This document shows, one piece after another, positions 7,006 to 29,571 of a DNA stretch of 64,000 nucleotides (position 1 is its first letter; the number at the start of each line of letters is the position of its first letter). The notes below the pieces were generated by a model. It was given only the letters and a program-made list of their open reading frames with translations, searched no databases and was not told the DNA's origin. The position numbers and the translations under genes are program-made. The DNA comes from Mobula hypostoma (taxonomy: Eukaryota): assembly GCF_963921235.1 (NCBI RefSeq), contig NC_086108.1, positions 54,562,001 to 54,626,000 on the forward strand, in the 5' to 3' direction.

Positions 7006-7410
7006 TACCTGGATTTGCTCATCACAAATTATTCATCCATGATCACTTCCCAACAGCATGGAGTAAAAGTAGATAATCCTGAAATCAAGCTATAGGCTGA
7101 ATTGTTGGAACTCTATACAGTACTCCCCACACGAAGCAATTACGATTCCCAACCACAATAGACTGACATAAAACATCTTGCAGTTTTTGAACCCCACACA
7201 GCACTACATCATATATTCTGTCATTAAAGGTTAGTATCAACATTGTTTAAGAAAATTGTGAGCTGAAAAACAGTTCATTTTATCTTCTTTTGGCATATCA
7301 TTCCTTCAGCTCAAATCATTTCCATTGTGGTAAGTGGAAATATTTAATCAGCCTTTTTGAGTGAAAATTGATGCTTCCTCAGCAGTTGTAGAATACACCT
7401 TTTGGTGCTA

Positions 7411-7527
7411 CTTGAACACGTCTTCAGTGATGAACCCGGGGTCGTAGGGTGTTTTGGGTCTTTAATCATCTGACACCCTCACCTGGTCAACCCGGGGGGG
7501 GGGTGATCAGCCCCCGACATGTCCAAG
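7411..7527 (-). ncRNA. Structured 3' UTR resembling a rearranged hammerhead ribozyme (degenerate copy)
   Basis: Enclosing helix CTTGGACATG/CGTGTTCAAG, stem GGGTGT/ACACCC with a GUC site, stem GATGA/TCATC, core CTGAAGA. GAAA appears as AAAA in a CpG context. Confidence 0.4.
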
Positions 7528-8735
7528 TGGCGCACTAATCCACGGATCCCCCCCTCCGGATCCACAGCCACTGCGAGGTCTTTTCAGCGGCCTCCAGAAT
7601 GTTCTTGGTGGCTCTTCTGCACTGCAGTCCTTAAACTCCAAGGAATTTTAGAGTCTGCTGTAATGAATGGCCAGCAAAGCCCCAACACCCAACTTTGACT
7701 GGCTCACAGCGAGCTCTCCAGCCATTGCTCCAGCATCCTGCAACAAGATCTGTATATTTAGCCTTCTTGCGCTCGTTGGCCTCTTCAATCCGGTCTTCCC
7801 AGGGGACAGTAAGTTCCAGCAGAACAACTTGCTTTGTAGACTCCGATATTAACACCATGTCCGAGTGGCTGCGATGTTCTCTGGGAACTTGAGCTGCGTT
7901 CCTAGATCGACTTGGAGCTGCCAGTCTCGTGCAGTGGCAAGAAGCCCTCCTGAGGAGCTAGGCCGATGTTGAGCCTTCTCCCCCGCTCTGATAAAGGTGA
8001 TGGACTGTTTGGGAGTGTGCTGATTTTTGCTGTCTTGAATCGCTGTGCTGATTGCATCCGCCATAGACCTTAGGACTTGGTCATGGCACCAGTGGTATCG
8101 CCCTTCCCCGACGCCTTCGGGCAGCAACTTAGGATATGCTCCAAGGTGCCCCTCCTCTGGCACAGTTGGCATGCTGGAGTGTTTGCCATGCCCCACCTGT
8201 GCAGGTTGGCCGGGCTTGGGAGAACGTCATAGACTGATTGGATGAGAAACTTGATGTGCAATGGTTCGGCTCTCCAGCGCTCTGTCCAGGTGAACTTGCG
8301 AGGTTCCCCATGCTCCCATCTAGTCCAGGCACCTTGTTTGAACATGCCGGCCATCTTGCTGTATCGTTCTTCCTCCACTCCTGCTCGTATCTCGTCCTGA
8401 ACCAGTTGACGCTTCTCCTTTCCAGAGCCATGCCTCCACTGTGTCGACAGCTTCCTGTGCCTGCCACTTCCTTCCGGTCTTTACACAGATTCCTGCCGAA
8501 GTGACTTTAACATCAGAGGAATCTCGGTACATCATAACCTCCCTGGTTCGAGTGACTTTGAATTGCTCTGACAGGCCGCTGATGGGGAGTTGTAGCTTGG
8601 TGGAATGCCCAGACAGGGCAATGCAGCTTAAGATCCGGGGGAGCCCCAGCCATCTCCGGAGAAACTGACTGATGGTCTTCTCCAGAGCCTCCACTGTTGA
8701 CATTGGCACCTCATAGACTAGAAGGGGCCAGAGTA

Positions 8736-10851
8736 CATAGAACATAGAATAGTACAGCACAGTACAGGCCCTTCAGCCCACAATGTTGTGCCGACCCTCA
8801 AACCCTATCTCCCATATAACTCCCCACCTTAAATTCCTCCATATACCTGTCTAGTAGTCTCTTAAACTTCACTAGTGTATCTGCCTCCACCACTGACTCA
8901 GGCAGTGCATTCCATGCACCAACCACTCTCTGAGTAAAAAACCTTCCTCTGATATCCCCCTTGAATTTCCCACTTCTTACCTTAAAGCCATGTCCTCTTG
9001 TATTGAACAGTGGTGCCCTGGGGAAGAGGCACTGGCTGTCCAGTATCTATTCCTCCTAATATCTTGTACACCTCTATCATGTCCCCTCTCATCCTCCTTC
9101 TCTCCAAAGAGTAAAGCCCTAGCTCCCTTAATCTCTGCTCATAATCCATACTCTCTAAACCAGGCAGCAACCTGGTAAATCTCTGCTGTACCCTTTCTAA
9201 TGCTTCCACATCCTTCCTATAGTGAGGCGACCAGAACTGGACACAGTACTCCAAGTGTGGCCTAACCAGAGTTTTATAGAGCTGCATCATTATATCGCGA
9301 CTCTTAAACTCTATCCCTCGACTTATGAAAGCTAACACCCCATAAGCTTTCTTAACTACCCTATCCACCTGTGAGGCAACTTTCAGGGATCTGTGGACAT
9401 GTAACCCAGACCCCTCTGCTCCTCCATACTACCAAGTATCCTGCCATTTACTTTGTACTCTGCCTTGGAGTTTGTCCTTCCAAAGTGTACCACCTCACAC
9501 TTCTCTGGGTTGAACTCCATCTGCCACTTCTCAGCCCACTTCTGCATCCTATCAATGTCTCTCTGCGATCTTCGACAGTCCTCTACACTATCCACGACAC
9601 CACCAACCTTTGTGTCACCTGCAAACTTGCCAACCCATCCTTCTACCTTGACATCCAGGTCGTTAATAAAAATCATGAATAGTAGAGGTCCCAGAACAGA
9701 TCCTTGTGGGACACCACTAGTCACAATCCTCCAATTTGAATGTACTCCCTCCACCACAACCCTCTGCTTTCTGCAGGCAAGCCAATTCTGAATCCACCTG
9801 GCCAAACTTCCCTGGATCCCATTCCTTCTGACTTTCTGAATGAGCCTACCATGTGGAACCTTGTCAAATGCCTTACTAAAATCCATGTAGATCACATCCA
9901 CTGCACTACCCTCATCTATATGCCTGGTCACCTCCTCAAAGAACTCTATCAGGCTTGTTAGACATGATCTGCCCTTCACAAAGCCATGCTGACTCTCCCT
10001 GATCAGACCATGATTCTCTAAGTGCCCATAGATCCTATCTCTAAGAATCGTTTCCAGCAGCTTTCCCACCATGAATGTAAGGCTCACTGGTCTATAATTA
10101 CCTGGACTATCCCTACTACCTTTTTTGAACAAGGGGACAACATTCGCCTCCCTCCAATCCTCTGGTACCATTCCCGTGGACAACGAGGACAAAGATCCTA
10201 GCCAAAGGCTCAGCAATCTCTTCCCTCGCCTCGTGGAGCAGCCTGGGGAATATTCCTTCAGGCCCCGGGGACTTATCTGTCCTAATGTATTTTAACAACT
10301 CCAACACCTCCTCTCCCTTAATATCAACATGCTCCAGAACATCAACCTCACTCATATTGTCCTCACCATCATCAAATTCCCTCTCATTGGTGAATACTGA
10401 AGAGAAGTATTTATTGAGGACCTCACTCACTTCCACAGCCTCCAGGCACATCTTCCCACCTTTATCTCTAATTGGTCTTACCTTCACTCCTGTCATTCTT
10501 TTGTTCACATAATTGAAGAATGCCTTGGGGTTTTCCTTTACCCTACTCGCCAAGGCCTTCTCATGCCCCTTTCTTGCTCTTCTCAGCCCCTTCTAAAGCT
10601 CCTTTCTTGCTTCCTTATATTCCTCAATAGACCCATCTGATCCTTGCTTCCTAAACCTCATGTATGCTGCCTTCTTCCACCTGACTAGATTTTCCACTTC
10701 ACTTGTCACCCATGGTTCCTTCACCCTACTATTCTTTATCTTCCTTACCGGGACAAATTTATCCCTAACATCCTGCAAGAGATCTCTAAACGTCGACCAC
10801 ATATCCATAGTACATTTCCCTGCAGAAACATCATCCTAATTCACACCCACA
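8736..10851 (-). mobile_element. Young CR1 LINE, 5'-truncated, inserted into the HERO element
   Basis: ORF2 segments 9383-10216 and 8982-9368 (PGNYRPVSLT, DFSKAFDKVPH, GVPQGSVLGP); (TTCTATG)n tail at 8736; AGTA duplicated at 8732-8735 and 10851-10854. Confidence 0.95.
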
Positions 10852-11774
10852 GTAGCCTTGGCAGGACTCCGTGTTGGTACATCCAGGCTTTGAATTTTCC
10901 TGGAAGCCCAGGTTTATCAATCGCAGTGAGCCAGGTTATCAAGTCGCTCCTGCTTTGTTGAAGTGCGGCTGTGTCCTTCAGGGAACTGTTGAAGATCGTG
11001 CCCAGACTCTTGACTGGTTTTTCTGTCACTGTTGGAATCTGGATCCCTCCCAGGGTAAAGCGGAACCGGTCGGCCACTCTTCCCTTCTTCAGGACCAGAG
11101 ACCTGGACTTGGCTGGTTTAAAGCTCATCCTTGCCCATGAGATGAGCCATTCCAGCCTTGAAGGAGCCATCTGCACCCAGGGACGGATGTTGCCATCACC
11201 TTCAGGTCGTCCATGAGTGCTCTTATTGGGGGCTGCCGAGTACCAGATCTAGACATGGGGCCTCTACATTCCACCTCCGCTGACTTGACAATCAGGTTCA
11301 TGGCCAGTGAGAAGAGTGGCACCGAGATTGTGCAGCCAGTGATTGTGCCCTTCTCCAGCCGATGCCAGGCGGATGTTACTGACCCTGAGGAGACTCTCAA
11401 CCTGAAGCTGCTGTAATTGTCCAGAATGAGGCACCTAATTATGGACTTTAATATTCCAGTCAACTATACAGAAATAGACGCTTCAAAATCTACTTTAACT
11501 CTCTGAAGTTGTAGCATCACCAGAATGTCTAACTTTACATCATGGTTCTAACAAGTTAGTTGGAACAAGTGAAATACTTTTGAATACTGCTGTCTGGCTT
11601 AAGAAGTCACTGATACAAGGACATGCACACCACTTGCTAAGAAATGAAGTGCATAGCATCCTGTTAGATAATCTTAGCTTAAATTGCAGCGTGCATAACA
11701 TTTTGTGATATATGCTTTGTGGGTGCACTGTGATCTGCAGGAACATTGCTTCATTTGGTTGTGTACCAACTACC

Positions 11775-12691
11775 AACTACTCGGACTTCAACTACTGCAC
11801 AGAGTCTTGTCATCTTCAGAAGTTTTCAGATGACTCTGCCATAGTTGAATGCATCAGCAAGGGAGATGAGGTTGAATACAGGGCTACGGTAGGAAACTTT
11901 GTCACGTGGTGTGAGCAGAATTATCTGCAGCTTAATGTGAAAAAGACTAAGGAGCTGGTGGTAGACCTGAGGAGAGCTAAGGTACCGGTGACCCCTGTTT
12001 CCATCCAGGGGGTCAGGGTGGACATGGTGGAGGATTACAAATACCTGGGGATACGAATTGACTATAAACTGGACTGGTCAAAGAACACTGAGGCTGTCTA
12101 CAAGAAGAGGCAGAGCCGCCTCTATTTCCTGAGGAGACTGAGACCCTTTAACATCTGCTGGACGATGCTGAGGATGTTCTACGAGTCTGTGGTGGCCAGT
12201 GCTATCATGTTTGCTGTTGTGTGCTGGGGCAGCAGGCTGAGGGTAGCAGACACCAACAGAATCAACAAACTCATTTGTAAGGCCAGTGATGTTGTGGGGA
12301 TGGAACTGGACTCTCTCACGGTGGTGTCTGAAAAGAGGATGCTGTCTAAGTTGCATGCCATCTTGGACAATGTCTCCCATCCACTACATAATGTACTGGT
12401 TGGGCACAGGAGTACATTCAGCCAGAGACTCATTCCACCGAGATGCAACACAGAGCGTCATAGGAAGTCATTCCTGCCTGTGGCCATCAAACTTTACAAC
12501 TCCTCCCTTGGAGGGTCAGACATCCTGAGCCAATAGGCTGGTCCTGGATTTATTTCATAATTTACTGGCATAAGATACATATTACTATTTAACCATTTAT
12601 GGTTTTATTACTATTTATTATTTATGGTGCAACTGTAACGAAAACCAATTTCCCCCGGGATCAATAAAGTATGACTATGACTATGACTATG
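11775..12691 (+). mobile_element. Rex1/Babar-type LINE, 5'-truncated
   Basis: LQKFSDDSAIV, LQLNVKKTKELVVD, YKYLG, SRLYFLRRL, HRKSFLPVAIKLYNSS; AATAAA then (ACTATG)n tail at 12663-12691. Confidence 0.9.
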
Positions 12692-25099: not shown

Positions 25100-27180
25100 C
25101 TTCTTAAGCACCCTATCGAACTTGAACCCCAATGTCTCCCTGCTCAGCACCAGCTTTAAGGATCTTGCCCTCAACAGTGTACTGTCTCCTTGCATTTGCC
25201 CTACCAATGTGCAATACCTCACATTTATCTGGGTTAAACTCCATCTGTGATATCTGCAACTACACTCCCTACAACTCCACCAGCCTTGGTATCATCTGCA
25301 AACTTACTAACCCACTCATCTACATTATCCAGATCATTTATATACATCACAAACAGCAGAGATCCCAGCACAGATCCCTGTGTAACTCCACTAATTACAG
25401 ACCTCCAGCTCGAATAGGCCCCTTCAACAATTACCCCTCTCTTCTACATGCAAACCAGTTTGGAATCCAAACAGCCAATTCACCGTGAAAACCATGCTCC
25501 CTAAGCATCTGGATTAGCCTCCCATGCGAGACTTTGACAAACACCTTACTAAAATCCACATAGACAACATCCACTGCCTGACCTTCACAAAACTCTCTCG
25601 TCACTTTGTCAAAAACATCAATTTAGTTGTTAAGACATGACTTACCTGCACAAAGCCATGCTGCCTCTCCTTAATTAGGCTATGGGTTTCCAAGTACTCT
25701 TATATCCTATCCCTAAGGATTTTCCCCAGTAATTTCCCTACACCTTGCGTGATAATCACCAGTCTATAGTTTCCAGTATTTTCCCTTTTTTCCCTTCTTA
25801 AATAGAGCTACAACGTTAGCCACTCACCAGTCCTCCAGAACCTCGCCTGTGCCTAGAGAGGACACGGAGATACTGGTCAAGGCCCCAGCAATCTTGTCTC
25901 TAGCCTCCCTCAATAACCTGGGGTAAGTTCCATCAGGAGCTGGGGCTTACCCATCTTCGTACTCATTAGGAGACATAACACTTCCTCCACTTTGATGTCT
26001 AAACATCCTAACATATTTATGCACTTGGCGCTGCTGGCCCTTTACCATCATGGCTCCTCAGAGTGCTTGAAAGACAAGCTGTCTCCCCCGAAGATCCCAT
26101 CGACCTTGAAAGCCTCATCACTCTGGCTCTCTGTATTGACAAGTATCTCATGGAACGACCTGCCAGAGCCCCAGTTCCATTCCCAGAATCATTTCAAGCT
26201 TCAGAACCTCCATTACAAATGCCTCCAGAAAACATGCCATTAGGGGGAGCTCTCTTGACCCCCCCTCCTCCCACCTAAGAACGTGTGTTGGTGAAGAAAA
26301 AACATGAGTCTACTGCAGAGCAGTAACCACCAACAGCAGCCGGGAAGTGGTGCCCCCCACATAGAAACGAGGTGCCTCCTATTTGGTCCCCCATTCCAGC
26401 ACCAGTCACACTCTCTGTCCTCCTCCACATTTCATTGACTCTACGTGCAGAGGAGGCATTTACTATCGTGGACTCAACAAAATTGCCATTACGAACCACT
26501 ACCCTCTCCTCTTGATGGATAGTGCATCTGCGGGGCCCAAATCTCCACCAAACTGGAGCTACGGAGTGCATACAACCTGATCCGCATCTGCCGGGGGATG
26601 AGTGGAAGATGGCATTTATCACACCCACTGACCACTATGAATACTTAGTGATGCCTTTCGGATCTTCCAACGGTTTCCAAGCCTTCGTTAACGATATCCT
26701 CCAAGATTTGCAGCACAGTTTTGTGCTCACTTACCTCAATGACATCCTCATCTTCTCCAAGAACTCCCAGAACCACGCCTGCCACGACCATTCAGTCCTT
26801 CAGTGTCTCCTTGAACACCAACTTGACTGCAGGTTAGAGAAGTACCAGTTCCACACCCCAGCCATCTCCTTCCTGGGCTATGTCTTTTTACCCCAAGGCA
26901 TAACCTTGGACCTGGAGTAAGTACGTGCTGTTGTTGAATGACCCTGACCAGGCACCTAGAGTTCTTCTTGGGTTTCTCCAACTTCTACCGCCGTTTCATC
27001 AGAAACTACAGCCAGATCACCACTCCTCTCACCTCCCTCACGGATAACCTGGTTTGCCGCCATGAGCCATGCTTTTGAGGAGCTCAAATGATGCTTCACC
27101 ACCACTCCCACTGGTGAGTTATCTTCTTCAAAACAATTTAATTTCATCATCTTCTTCTGACTGAGTTCCAAAGATGTTGT

Positions 27181-29571
27181 AGAACATAGAATAGTACAGC
27201 ACATTACAGGCCCTTCGGCCCACAATGTTGTGCTGACCCTCAAACCCTGCCTCCCATATAAGCCCCCACCTTAAATTCCTCCATATACCTATCTAGTAGT
27301 CTCTTAAACTTCACTAGTGTGTCTGCCTCCACCACTGACTCAGGCAGTGCATTCCACGCACCAACCACTCTCTGAGTAAAAAACCTTCCTCTAACATCCC
27401 CCTTGAACTTCCCACCCCTTACCTTAAAGCCATGTCCTCTTGTATTGAGCAGTGGTGCTCTGGGGAAGAGGCGCTGGCTGTCCACTCTATCTATTCCTCT
27501 TATTATCTTGTACACCTCTATCATGTCTCCTCTCATCGTCCTTCTCTCCAAAGAGTAAAGCCCTAGCTCCCTTAATCTCTGATCATAATGCATACTCTCT
27601 AAACCAGGCAGCATCCCAGTGAATCTCCTCTGTACCCTTTCCAATGCTTTCACATTCTTCCTATGGTGAGGCAACCAGAACTGGACACAGTACTCCAAGT
27701 GTGGCCTAACCAGTATTTTATAGAGCTGCATCATTACATTGCGACTCTTAAACTCTACCCCTCGACTTATGAAAGCTAACACCCCATAAGCTTTCTTAAC
27801 TACCCTATCTACCTGTGAGGCAACTTTCAGGGATGTGTGGACATGTACCCCCAGACCCCTCTGCTCCTCCACACTACCAAGTATCCTGCCATTTACTTTG
27901 TACTCTGCCTTGGAGTTTGTCCTTCCAAAGTGTACCACCTCACACTTCTCTGGGTTGAACTCCATCTGCCACTTCTCAGCCCACTTCTGCATCCTATCAA
28001 TGTCTCTCTGCAATCTTCGACAATCCTCTACACTATCTACAACACCACCATCCTTTGTGTCATCTGCAAACTTGCCAACCCACCCTTCTACCCCCACATC
28101 CAGGTCGTTAATAAAAATCACGAAAAGTAGAAGTCCCAGAACAGTTCTTTGTGGGACACCACTAGTCACAATCCTCCAATCTGAATGTTCTCCCTCCACC
28201 ACAACCCTCTGCCTACTGCAGGCATGCCAATTCTGAATCCACCTGGCCAAACTTCCCTGGATCCCATGCCTTCTGATTTTCTGAATAAGCCTACAGTGTG
28301 GAACCTTGTCAAATGCCTTACTAAAATCCATATAGATCACATCCACTGCACTATCCTCATCTATATGCCTGGTCACCTCCTCAAAGAACTCTATCAGGCT
28401 TGTTAGACATGATCTGTCCTTCACAAAGCCATGCTGACTGTCCCTGATCAGACCATGATTCTCTAAATGCCCATAGATCCTATCTCTAAGAATCTTTTCC
28501 AACAGCTTTCCCACCACAGACGTAAGGCTCACTGGTCTATAATTACCCGGACTACCCCTACTACCTTTTTTGAACAATGGGACAACATTCGCCTCCCTCC
28601 GGTCCTCCGGTACCATTCCCGCGGACAACGAGGACATAAAGATCCTAGCCAGAGGCTCAGCAATCTCTTCTCTCGCCTCGTGGAGCAGCCTGGGGAATAT
28701 TCCATCAGGCCCTGGGGACTTGTCCGTCCTAATGTATTTTAACAACTCCAACACCTCCTCTCCCTAAATATCAACATGCTCCAGAACATCAACCTCACTC
28801 ATATTGTCCTCACCGTCATCAAGTTCCCTCTCATTGGTGAATACCAAGGAGGAGTATTCGTTGAGGACCTCGATCACTTCCACAGCCTCCAGGCAGATCT
28901 TCCCACCTTTATCTCTAATCGGTCCTACCTTCACTCCTGTCATCCTTTTGTTCTTCACATAATTGAAGAATGCCTTGGGATTTTCCTTTACCCTACTTGC
29001 CAAGGCCTTCTCATGCCCCCTTCTTGCTCTCCTCAGCCCCTTCTTAAGCTCCTTTCTTGTTTCCCTATATTCCTCAATAGACCCATCTGATCCTTGCTTC
29101 CTAAACCTCATGTATGCTGCCTTCTTCCACCTGACTAGATTTTCCACCTCAATTGTCACCCATGGTTCCTTCACCCTACCATTCTTTATCTTCCTCACCA
29201 GGACAAATTTATCCCTAACATCTTGCAAGAGATCTCTAAACATCGACCACATGTCCATAGTACATTTCCCTGCAAAAACATCATCCCAATTCACACTCAC
29301 AAGTTCTAGCCTTATAGCCTCATAATTTGCCTCTCCCCAATTAAAAATTTTCCTGTCCTCTCTGATTCTATCCTTTTCCATGATAATTCTAAAGGCCAGG
29401 GAGCGGTGGTCACTTTTCCCCAGATGCTCACCTACTGAGAGATCTGTGACCTGACCCAGTTCATTACCTAGTACTAGATCTAGTATGGCATTCCCCCTGG
29501 TCGGCCTGTCCACATACTGTGACAGGAATCCGTCCTGGACACACTTAACAAACTCTGCCCCATCTAAACCC
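27181..29571 (-). mobile_element. Young CR1 LINE, 5'-truncated, with a 504-aa uninterrupted RT segment
   Basis: ORFs 27240-28754 and 28764-29513 (endonuclease end SDH, KFADDTK); (TTCTATG)n tail; nearly identical to 8736-10851. Confidence 0.95.

Follow-up and report, generated by a model that had tools for sequence, protein, structure and literature searches.

Penelope-like elements encode a Penelope-type reverse transcriptase (RT) together with a GIY-YIG endonuclease, and R2, a target-specific element that lacks a terminal repeat, carries at its 5' end a ribozyme of another class than the hammerhead, the HDV-like ribozyme. The hammerheads of Penelope-like elements are described, in the accessible part of the report on them, as minimal type I or canonical motifs in which one extra base is tolerated at 9/10.1 (PMC4209133). 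As far as the available portions of that literature go, a circle model has already been proposed for Penelope elements, and for retrozymes monomer release and circularisation have been shown. The hammerhead core is defined in the accessible text of Perreault 2011 (PMC3088659) as C3 U4 G5 A6 N7 G8 A9, G12 A13 A14 A15 and U16 H17. The orders in which its blocks, namely the CUGANGA strand (C), the GAAA strand (G) and the cleavage site (S), can follow one another were enumerated in Eckert 2023, whose accessible text gives six orders on the assumption that CUGANGA and its stem II strand are inseparable (PMC10085705). According to the same text, types SGC and CSG cleave in vitro and are found only in environmental data, and the way in which the contact helix connects to stem III in type SGC is not readily reconciled with the crystal structure (PMC10085705).

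We analysed a stretch of 64,000 nucleotides of Mobula hypostoma DNA, here called the window, which carries on its minus strand, from about 11435 to about 7384, an R2-group element whose 3' end is a hammerhead-like motif. This HERO-type copy was truncated at its 5' side inside the RT and split by a LINE insertion at 8738-10851, and the 64-kb window held no further copy. The pieces of the copy are as follows.

10847..11435, minus strand: 5' piece, a 5'-truncated HERO-type ORF (part of the RT domain); tblastn with P0005 and P0008 at 82-84% identity, and blastn with L001
8738..10851, minus strand: presumed CR1-type LINE inserted in the HERO-type copy, outside the motif; splits the ORF between P0008 residues 661 and 659
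7511..8736, minus strand: 3' piece of the ORF with zinc knuckle and restriction-like endonuclease, frameshifted; Pfam zf-RVT (E 3e-7) and tblastn

We take the LINE at 8738-10851 to be of CR1 type from the text of its ORF; because it is inserted in the HERO-type copy, it is the younger of the two. The CR1-type copies at 27180-29301 and 8738-10851 are 93.6% alike, and more distant CR1-type pieces are scattered over the window. Just upstream of the truncated HERO-type copy, on the opposite strand, a 275-codon open frame at 11709-12536 (+) belongs by eye to another RT-type element.

Protein relatives of the ORF piece at 7511-8736 occur in many fish and in lancelets, judging by the named hosts. The intact relatives P0008, L004 and L014 carry RVT_1 and zf-RVT domains, their best solved-structure matches are R2 proteins, and the endonuclease-region alignment A1 contains PD and ELT motifs, which we take to mark the endonuclease. 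The HERO label is provisional and draws on the restriction-like endonuclease (RLE), the fish and lancelet hosts, the lack of a fixed target and a likeness to Takifugu BAC82598 (presumably HEROFr), rather than on an RT tree with named references. At the level of protein sequence, the element belongs among the R2-group (RLE) non-LTR elements, which the accessible text of PMC3636483 defines by a single ORF with RT, zinc knuckle and PD-(D/E)xK endonuclease.

The first-pass annotation of this DNA had proposed that a HERO-type element carries, where it ends at its 3' side, a hammerhead core whose strands follow a non-circular order, and this reading held up: the core is near-invariant in the family and its order is S-G-C. 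Every string that it quoted lies on the minus strand where it had been placed (CUGAAGA at 7427-7421, A at 7455, GUC with its C at 7472, and A at 7471), as do stem III (7478-7473/7452-7447), the 10-bp helix (7527-7518/7420-7411) and GGGUU 7493-7489 with GACCC 7460-7456. The motif stretch folded better than 200 of 200 shuffles (z -3.67), and no Rfam family was found over it. The window's own copy departs from the hammerhead core in that G12 (7455) is A and positions 1.1 and 2.1 form an A-A mismatch; bearing G12A and U1.1A, truncated and interrupted by the CR1-type LINE, it is a dead relic. Read against its family, the minus strand of the window copy divides into the following parts, from 5' to 3'.

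7518..7527, minus strand: 5' strand of helix A, which closes the ribozyme fold and pairs with 7411-7420; 8 significant covarying pairs, 91.6% of cells paired
7494..7517, minus strand: hairpin H, with the self-complementary loop hexamer UGAUCA (7509-7504) and a 3' strand decayed to a C run
7489..7493, minus strand: stem II strand with G10.1 (7493), detached from CUGANGA; 10.1-11.1 is G-C in 52/60 rows, 3 significant pairs
7481..7487, minus strand: 5' strand of helix C (stem I-II contact helix), partner 7441-7435; 4 significant pairs
7479..7480, minus strand: GA of the putative kink-turn, non-bulged strand; G 66/69, A 69/69
7472..7478, minus strand: 5' strand of stem III with H17 (C at 7472), the predicted cut falling between this base and 7471
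7467..7471, minus strand: 5' strand of stem I; 7471 (position 1.1) is a private A in the window copy; 3 significant pairs
7447..7460, minus strand: block G, with the 3' strand of stem II (C11.1 at 7456), GAAA (G12 at 7455, here A) and the 3' strand of stem III
7442..7446, minus strand: 3-nt bulge and GA of the putative kink-turn; G 69/69, A 68/69, third bulge base U in 49/60
7435..7441, minus strand: 3' strand of helix C, from covariation and pairing counts
7421..7432, minus strand: 3' strand of stem I and CUGANGA (7427-7421)
7411..7420, minus strand: 3' strand of helix A, beginning immediately after A9; 7415 is C in host-lineage depth, which gives a perfect helix
7384..7410, minus strand: tail to the 3' end of the element, with a small hairpin (7407-7396) and no poly(A); depth falls below about 7384

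Relatives were picked by protein only: an alignment of the endonuclease region supplied the best 80 of 191 confirmed metagenome loci (42-81% identity), of which 31, together with the window, served to build a covariance model. Within these best 80 of 191, 66 loci extend at least 150 nt beyond the ORF on its 3' side; the model found the full motif there in 62 of them, and full-length element matches scored 31-118 bits. Two of the four loci without a model match, L006 and L065, are broken inside the motif, L077 is a distant variant by eye and L075 has no core. Among viral sequences, 80 stretches (of 120) that contain these core words in matching order reached at most 20.3 bits and held no good motif, and no relative of the element protein was found on the viral contigs. 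When the 65 element 3' ends of at least 200 nt were run through a parser for the S-G-C core, 56 scored 10-14, and 0 of 200 shuffles rose above 8. The motif is not a product of chance. Rfam returned nothing relevant in 7 loci, nor in the L075 UTR.

Some loci departed from the common pattern. The distant member L077 (1770-1890) has a four-way junction and all six helices, with no kink-turn signature. L075 lies inside the clade as the sister of L064 (support 99/92) and is tandem, without the hammerhead core; its 3' UTR (L075:1290-1570) contains a different branched stem that may be a replacement ribozyme. Internal deletions join the N-terminal ORF to the endonuclease region in L047, L065 and L079. 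L081, L082 and L083 are HERO-type fragments on short contigs in three bacterial genome assemblies, and are probably eukaryotic contamination. The last of these is a distant RLE element (35% identity, on a long branch) that ends in a TAG microsatellite; at L083:1185-1285 it displays, by eye, an unsplit type-SGC-like fold that the covariance model missed, with a 3-bp stem II directly after CUGAUGA and a contact helix. Possibly this unsplit wiring, seen in a single sequence, is ancestral.

Core positions were counted in the 69 ungapped of 76 matches, which include many close relatives (about 25 clusters at 80% identity). U4, G5, A9, A13, A14 and C15.2 were invariant (69/69), A6 and A15.1 were kept in 68, C3 and U16.1 in 67, and G8 in 66 of the 69. 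G12 was kept in 60, the other nine having A, at a CpG. N7 was U in 42 matches, A in 12, C in 12 and G in 3, and H17 was C in 33, U in 22, A in 14 and G in none. In L025 and L026, which form one family, C3 changed to U together with G8 to A, giving U3-A8, a swap known from Penelope hammerheads in the accessible literature on them. At the family level, the core is that of a hammerhead. All 14 copies whose ORF end is open have a perfect core, versus 30 of 38 others, a difference that was not significant (P 0.09). Of 59 loci, 35 have the ORF stop within the 5' strands of the motif and 19 upstream of helix A; in 2 it comes immediately past the cut and in 3 farther on. The 3' UTR location given in the first-pass annotation holds for the core: the stop precedes it in almost every locus, so coding constraint cannot explain it. 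The location does not hold for the 5' half, which is partly coding, since in L001 and in 20 of the 90 relatives reaching the C-terminus the ORF runs through this half and stops at a UGA right after the GUC.

In 5' to 3' order, the motif comprises helix A, hairpin H, a stem II strand, helix C, GA, a stem III strand, H17 and a stem I strand, followed after a linker of 1-7 nt by the partner strand II', GAAA, III', 3 nt, GA, C', I', CUGANGA and A'. Architecture was counted in the 60 of 81 rows with a parser score of at least 9. A conventional stem II after CUGANGA was rejected, the base after A9 being pairable with 11.1 in just 2 of the 60. The earlier suggestion that a junction replaces stem II did not survive: GGGUU/GACCC is stem II, with G10.1-C11.1 in 52 of 60 rows and G10.1 supplied by the upstream strand. 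The block order is II-S-G-C, with helices A and H inserted between A9 and G10.1. Helices A, H and II abut mostly without spacers, and therefore form a four-way junction between A9 and 10.1. Types I, II and III were also rejected, because these have the cyclic order C-G-S and nested stems, whereas here the order is S-G-C and stems I, II and III cross.

Covariation was assessed on 56 rows in 25 clusters, with L077, L010, L039 and L040 dropped. Against a tree-based null, 22 of 22 pairs at E<0.05 lay inside the six helices (8 in A, 4 in C, 3 each in II, III and I, and 1 in H), and on all 56 unclustered rows the same was true of 17 of 17 significant pairs; these figures are to be read with the registers of A, H and II having been set by best pairing and the parser having given preference to pairing in I and III. 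In a second count, on the model alignment, 94.1% of 2507 cells were paired versus 35-41% when slid. The covariance model contains neither stem I nor stem II, for which 94.2% and 95.3% of cells were paired, and the hammerhead pairing was present in 55, 51 and 56 of 56 rows, with 94-97% of cells paired. The first-pass annotation had named a family consensus with stem covariation as the check on its reading, and that consensus agrees with it, having a near-invariant core, a paired stem I and all 22 significant pairs in helices.

Helix C is formed by the flanks of II and I', and in three dimensions it would bring stems I and II into contact. GA pairs surround a 3-nt bulge at its junction with stem III, their four bases being kept in 66, 69, 69 and 68 of 69 matches. 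A kink-turn is a 3-nt bulge followed by tandem G-A and A-G pairs between two helices; by this rule, the motif carries a predicted kink-turn that links stem III to the I-II contact helix. The loop of H contained a self-complementary hexamer (UGAUCA, UGGCCA, UGUACA or UCAUGA) in 18 of 25 clusters versus 2.4 expected from shuffled loops, the clusters being mutually related and some families being without the hexamer. The first-pass annotation had picked out the core strands and overlooked the contact helix, the kink-turn signature, this palindromic loop and the tandem arrangement described below.

Contigs of four runs from four organisms (4 of 24 listed runs) were aligned onto 7340-7900. Two reversions had been named as what the window copy would need for activity, and both letters were present in the host lineage: on the element strand in the four runs, U accounted for 96-99% of depth at 7471 (position 1.1) and G for only 44, 28, 31 and 47% at 7455 (G12), the latter share being affected by an alignment onto the window copy that favours the window copy's own letters. 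At 7415 the minus strand carried C in 98-99% of depth, making helix A perfect. Decay at the G12 CpG exceeded the 9-38% found for the CpG at 7420, and A12 is likewise present in L001, the closest locus. The A12 majority may reflect CpG decay, reference-letter bias or a G12A subfamily. A ribozyme-dead G12A subfamily, to which window position 7455, L001 and L003 would belong, may have been mobilised; a second subfamily, with CUGAUGA, was found among loose contig ends. Genomic copies ended at about 7384, some 88 nt 3' of the predicted cut, with a flank agreement there of 0.40-0.45. No jump joint at 7472 was present among the joints listed for the four runs, and no indel occurred at the predicted cut in host-lineage contigs or in the relatives' matches. 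A drop in depth at 7473 was rejected as a sign of solo 3' fragments, as it tracks a stretch where the window copy diverges; upstream depth at 7587-7624 was equally high in runs X4 and X5 and lower in X9 and X11.

The 3' end ran straight into the conserved 5' UTR module of the next copy in 13 of 66 loci, an array frequency that tandem junctions in collapsed metagenome contigs overstate. These 13 loci are tandem by construction, so the fairer test lies in loci with the module upstream of the matched ORF. In all seven of these (L004, L014, L025, L065, L068, L072 and L079) the complete 5' UTR was preceded by the element's own 3' end. In L065 and L079 the partial own 3' end upstream comes after non-element DNA, which excludes an assembly loop. 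Its start lies about 40 nt to the 3' side of the cut in L079 and about 50 nt to the 5' side in L065; the start in L065 argues that the RT copied through the cut. The core lay 40-98 nt upstream of the module in 19 of 20 module-bearing loci (with a profile seeded from 11 of these), and dispersed-copy flanks had only 0-4 bases in common with the tandem spacer before the module. L025 assembles as a circle of 3836 nt, the unit being about 3.8 kb. The head-to-tail neighbours in L072 (1-5451) belong to two subfamilies that are 70% alike, with a switch point somewhere from the tail to residue 400; in L014 the likeness of the two repeats is 92%. The start of the 5' UTR (L031:2818-2960 and 19 other loci) is a conserved run of short hairpins with purine-rich loops and UGAC separators that is not in Rfam and may be a translation or protein-binding element; neither this module nor the L075 UTR folded significantly better than shuffles (z -1.28 and -1.62).

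In L061 (965-1570), a ribozyme half ending at H17(+1) is followed by one extra base and then by mid-ORF sequence, with no remainder downstream. The RT of R2 is capable of template jumping, and a jump onto a cut end would produce just such a junction as that in L061. The end of contig L035 falls at H17 and the start of contig L014 at +2. Three of about 16 breakpoints were thus within 2 nt of the cut (P about 0.03, post hoc), which is a weak sign of cutting.

In our view the rewired hammerhead fold, whose connectivity is that of the SGC and CSG types that cleave in vitro, very probably cleaves after its NUH triplet (H17). For its use by the element we propose, with somewhat less than even confidence, a full circle model of unit-length excision from tandem transcripts and re-ligation to a circle that is copied by the RT. 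Two cuts by the ribozyme, each after H17, would release a unit-length RNA from transcripts of tandem copies, whereupon helices A, II, C and III (four of the six; about 26 bp) would bring the ends of a monomer together, rebuild one ribozyme and allow ligation to seal the circle. The same 26 bp or so equally keep each cut end attached to the partner it had before cleavage, so a monomer could come free only through a strand swap; the palindromic loop of H might pair two ribozyme copies so that ends swap. The RT would start internally at the tail end, overrun the sealed cut and travel more than once around the circle, and the product would be insertions with a partial 3' end, the 5' UTR, the ORF and the 3' end in that order, again able to yield unit-length RNA. 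Should the fold cleave, we regard the narrower claim, that an internal start and a run through the sealed cut give rise to such insertions, as evenly balanced. The template likely holds the junction between tail and 5' UTR, because complete 5' UTRs come with an upstream tail. The likeness of just 70% in L072 and 92% in L014 counts against a single circular template, so that template switching or assembly chimeras must be added; the tandem, nested L075 without a core and the minority of G12 in the window's host lineage also count against the circle. In its broadest form, the proposal is that a whole clade of autonomous animal LINEs replicates via a ribozyme-sealed circular RNA of about 3.8 kb, using a seventh hammerhead wiring that is split by a four-way junction, bent by a kink-turn and equipped with a retrovirus-like kissing loop, and that the tandem pseudo-LTR insertions are products of rolling-circle target-primed reverse transcription; this we offer as a possibility that we lean modestly against.

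Other readings account for parts of the same evidence. An active hammerhead might serve as a 5'-end processor only, comparable to the HDV-like ribozyme of R2: the upstream repeat would free the element from a read-through transcript, the cut might license cap-independent translation, the template would be linear with its downstream ribozyme uncut or resealed, and tandems would arise by strand transfer or template jumps. The unlike tandem neighbours in L072 and L014, the jump-like chimera at H17 in L061, the start of L014 at +2 of an upstream ribozyme with the downstream one intact, and the highly structured 5' UTR all suit such a role, as does the finding, in the accessible text of PMC13725137, that self-cleavage alone can drive cap-independent translation. 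Identical ribozymes would nevertheless have to cut upstream yet not downstream, and only a jump could take insertions to the 5' side of the cut, whereas L065 extends there with no indel; on this balance, we consider the 5' role unlikely. Quite improbable, in our view, is a non-catalytic hammerhead-derived fold kept as a binding platform for the element RT. A position about 30-100 nt from the RT start site, a putative kink-turn and a palindromic loop that suggest protein or RNA partners, and the common A12 in the window lineage would all fit a platform, but conservation obeys catalytic rules (a free N7, an H17 that is never G in 69 and a paired change to U3-A8), and three breakpoints fall at the cut.

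We give similarly little weight to a self-destruct switch, in which the ribozyme would inactivate transcripts unless the element's own protein binds first, as a cis preference or a limit on activity, and tandems would be unrelated, arising for instance by insertion next to the element's own 5' end. The cut does part the RT start signal from the ORF and removes the stop codon in some families; yet this offers no account of seven complete 5' UTRs out of seven that follow a 3' end at a fixed short spacing, and the mere 0-4 bases that dispersed flanks share with the tandem spacer also speak against it. The role suggested in the first-pass annotation, in which cleavage at the 3' side would set where the template for target-primed reverse transcription ends, could appeal to the position near the 3' end and to the L061 chimera, which shows that the RT can use an end at H17 as a landing site. 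Nothing 3' of the cut is lost from the copies, however, the whole fold and the tail being retained to a boundary at about 7384, roughly 88 nt past the cut, so that cleavage cannot make the template end; the full motif is moreover kept in 62 of 66 relatives, and we find this role barely credible.

The circle model brings the element close to Penelope-like elements and retrozymes, and it may work alike; it is a member of neither, since it has an R2-like RT and a C-terminal nuclease. Unlike the Penelope hammerheads described in the accessible part of PMC4209133, the HERO motif has a non-circular order, an insertion at 9/10.1 that amounts to two helices, and an R2-group RT with a restriction-like endonuclease. 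The long-proposed, unproven Penelope circle model would become testable with a different RT and nuclease. Metazoan non-LTR retrozymes are likewise tandem repeats cut by hammerheads to circularising monomers, but their units, as far as the accessible text describes them, are non-coding, 150-450 bp long and of type I, whereas the HERO unit is about 3.8 kb and has its own RT (PMC7229834). The HDV-like ribozyme of R2 is similar in that self-cleavage frees an RLE-type element from a longer transcript, according to the available portion of PMC13580325. Products clamped by four helices, together with an RT that may copy circles, would be useful for RNA circularisation and RLE-based gene insertion.

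The openly accessible literature yielded no hammerhead in HERO and no such wiring, a prior mention being possible in subscription journals, Repbase Reports or Kojima and Fujiwara 2004. Within the literature searched, this would be the first hammerhead in an R2-group LINE; type SGC appeared there in Eckert 2023 only, and the available parts of Forgia 2023 and Mahbub 2017 held nothing further on the subject. The first-pass annotation had left it undecided whether the family is among the rearranged hammerheads already reported; it is absent from those of Eckert et al., which come, in the accessible text, from metatranscriptomes, soil metagenomes and one bacterium, and the accessible supplement of that paper makes no mention of a kink or k-turn (PMC10085705).

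Types SGC and CSG, as the accessible text of Eckert 2023 presents them, are the nearest relatives in wiring. As in type CSG, the path of the HERO motif runs through II, the contact helix, III, the cut, I, II', GAAA and III'; as in type SGC, III' is linked to the contact helix, I' and CUGANGA. Membership of type SGC was rejected because block C is not intact and helix A directly follows A9, and membership of type CSG, with block C first and G last, because only the stem II strand comes first and CUGANGA comes last. The cyclic order is the same with the ring opened between A9 and 10.1, so the motif would work like both types while being a member of neither. Unlike them, it is opened inside block C between A9 and 10.1 with two extra helices there; stem III and the contact helix are joined by two links, both closed and bearing the kink-turn signature, where Eckert 2023 leaves the geometry open; and it resides in an autonomous animal retrotransposon rather than in viroid-like RNAs or soil DNA. 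The putative kink-turn would be a natural answer to the geometric problem that remained open for type SGC. The HERO motif is a new opening of the SGC/CSG class, which Eckert 2023 assumed impossible, and it takes hammerhead topology past the six orders thought possible and places a non-circular permutation in animal genomes.
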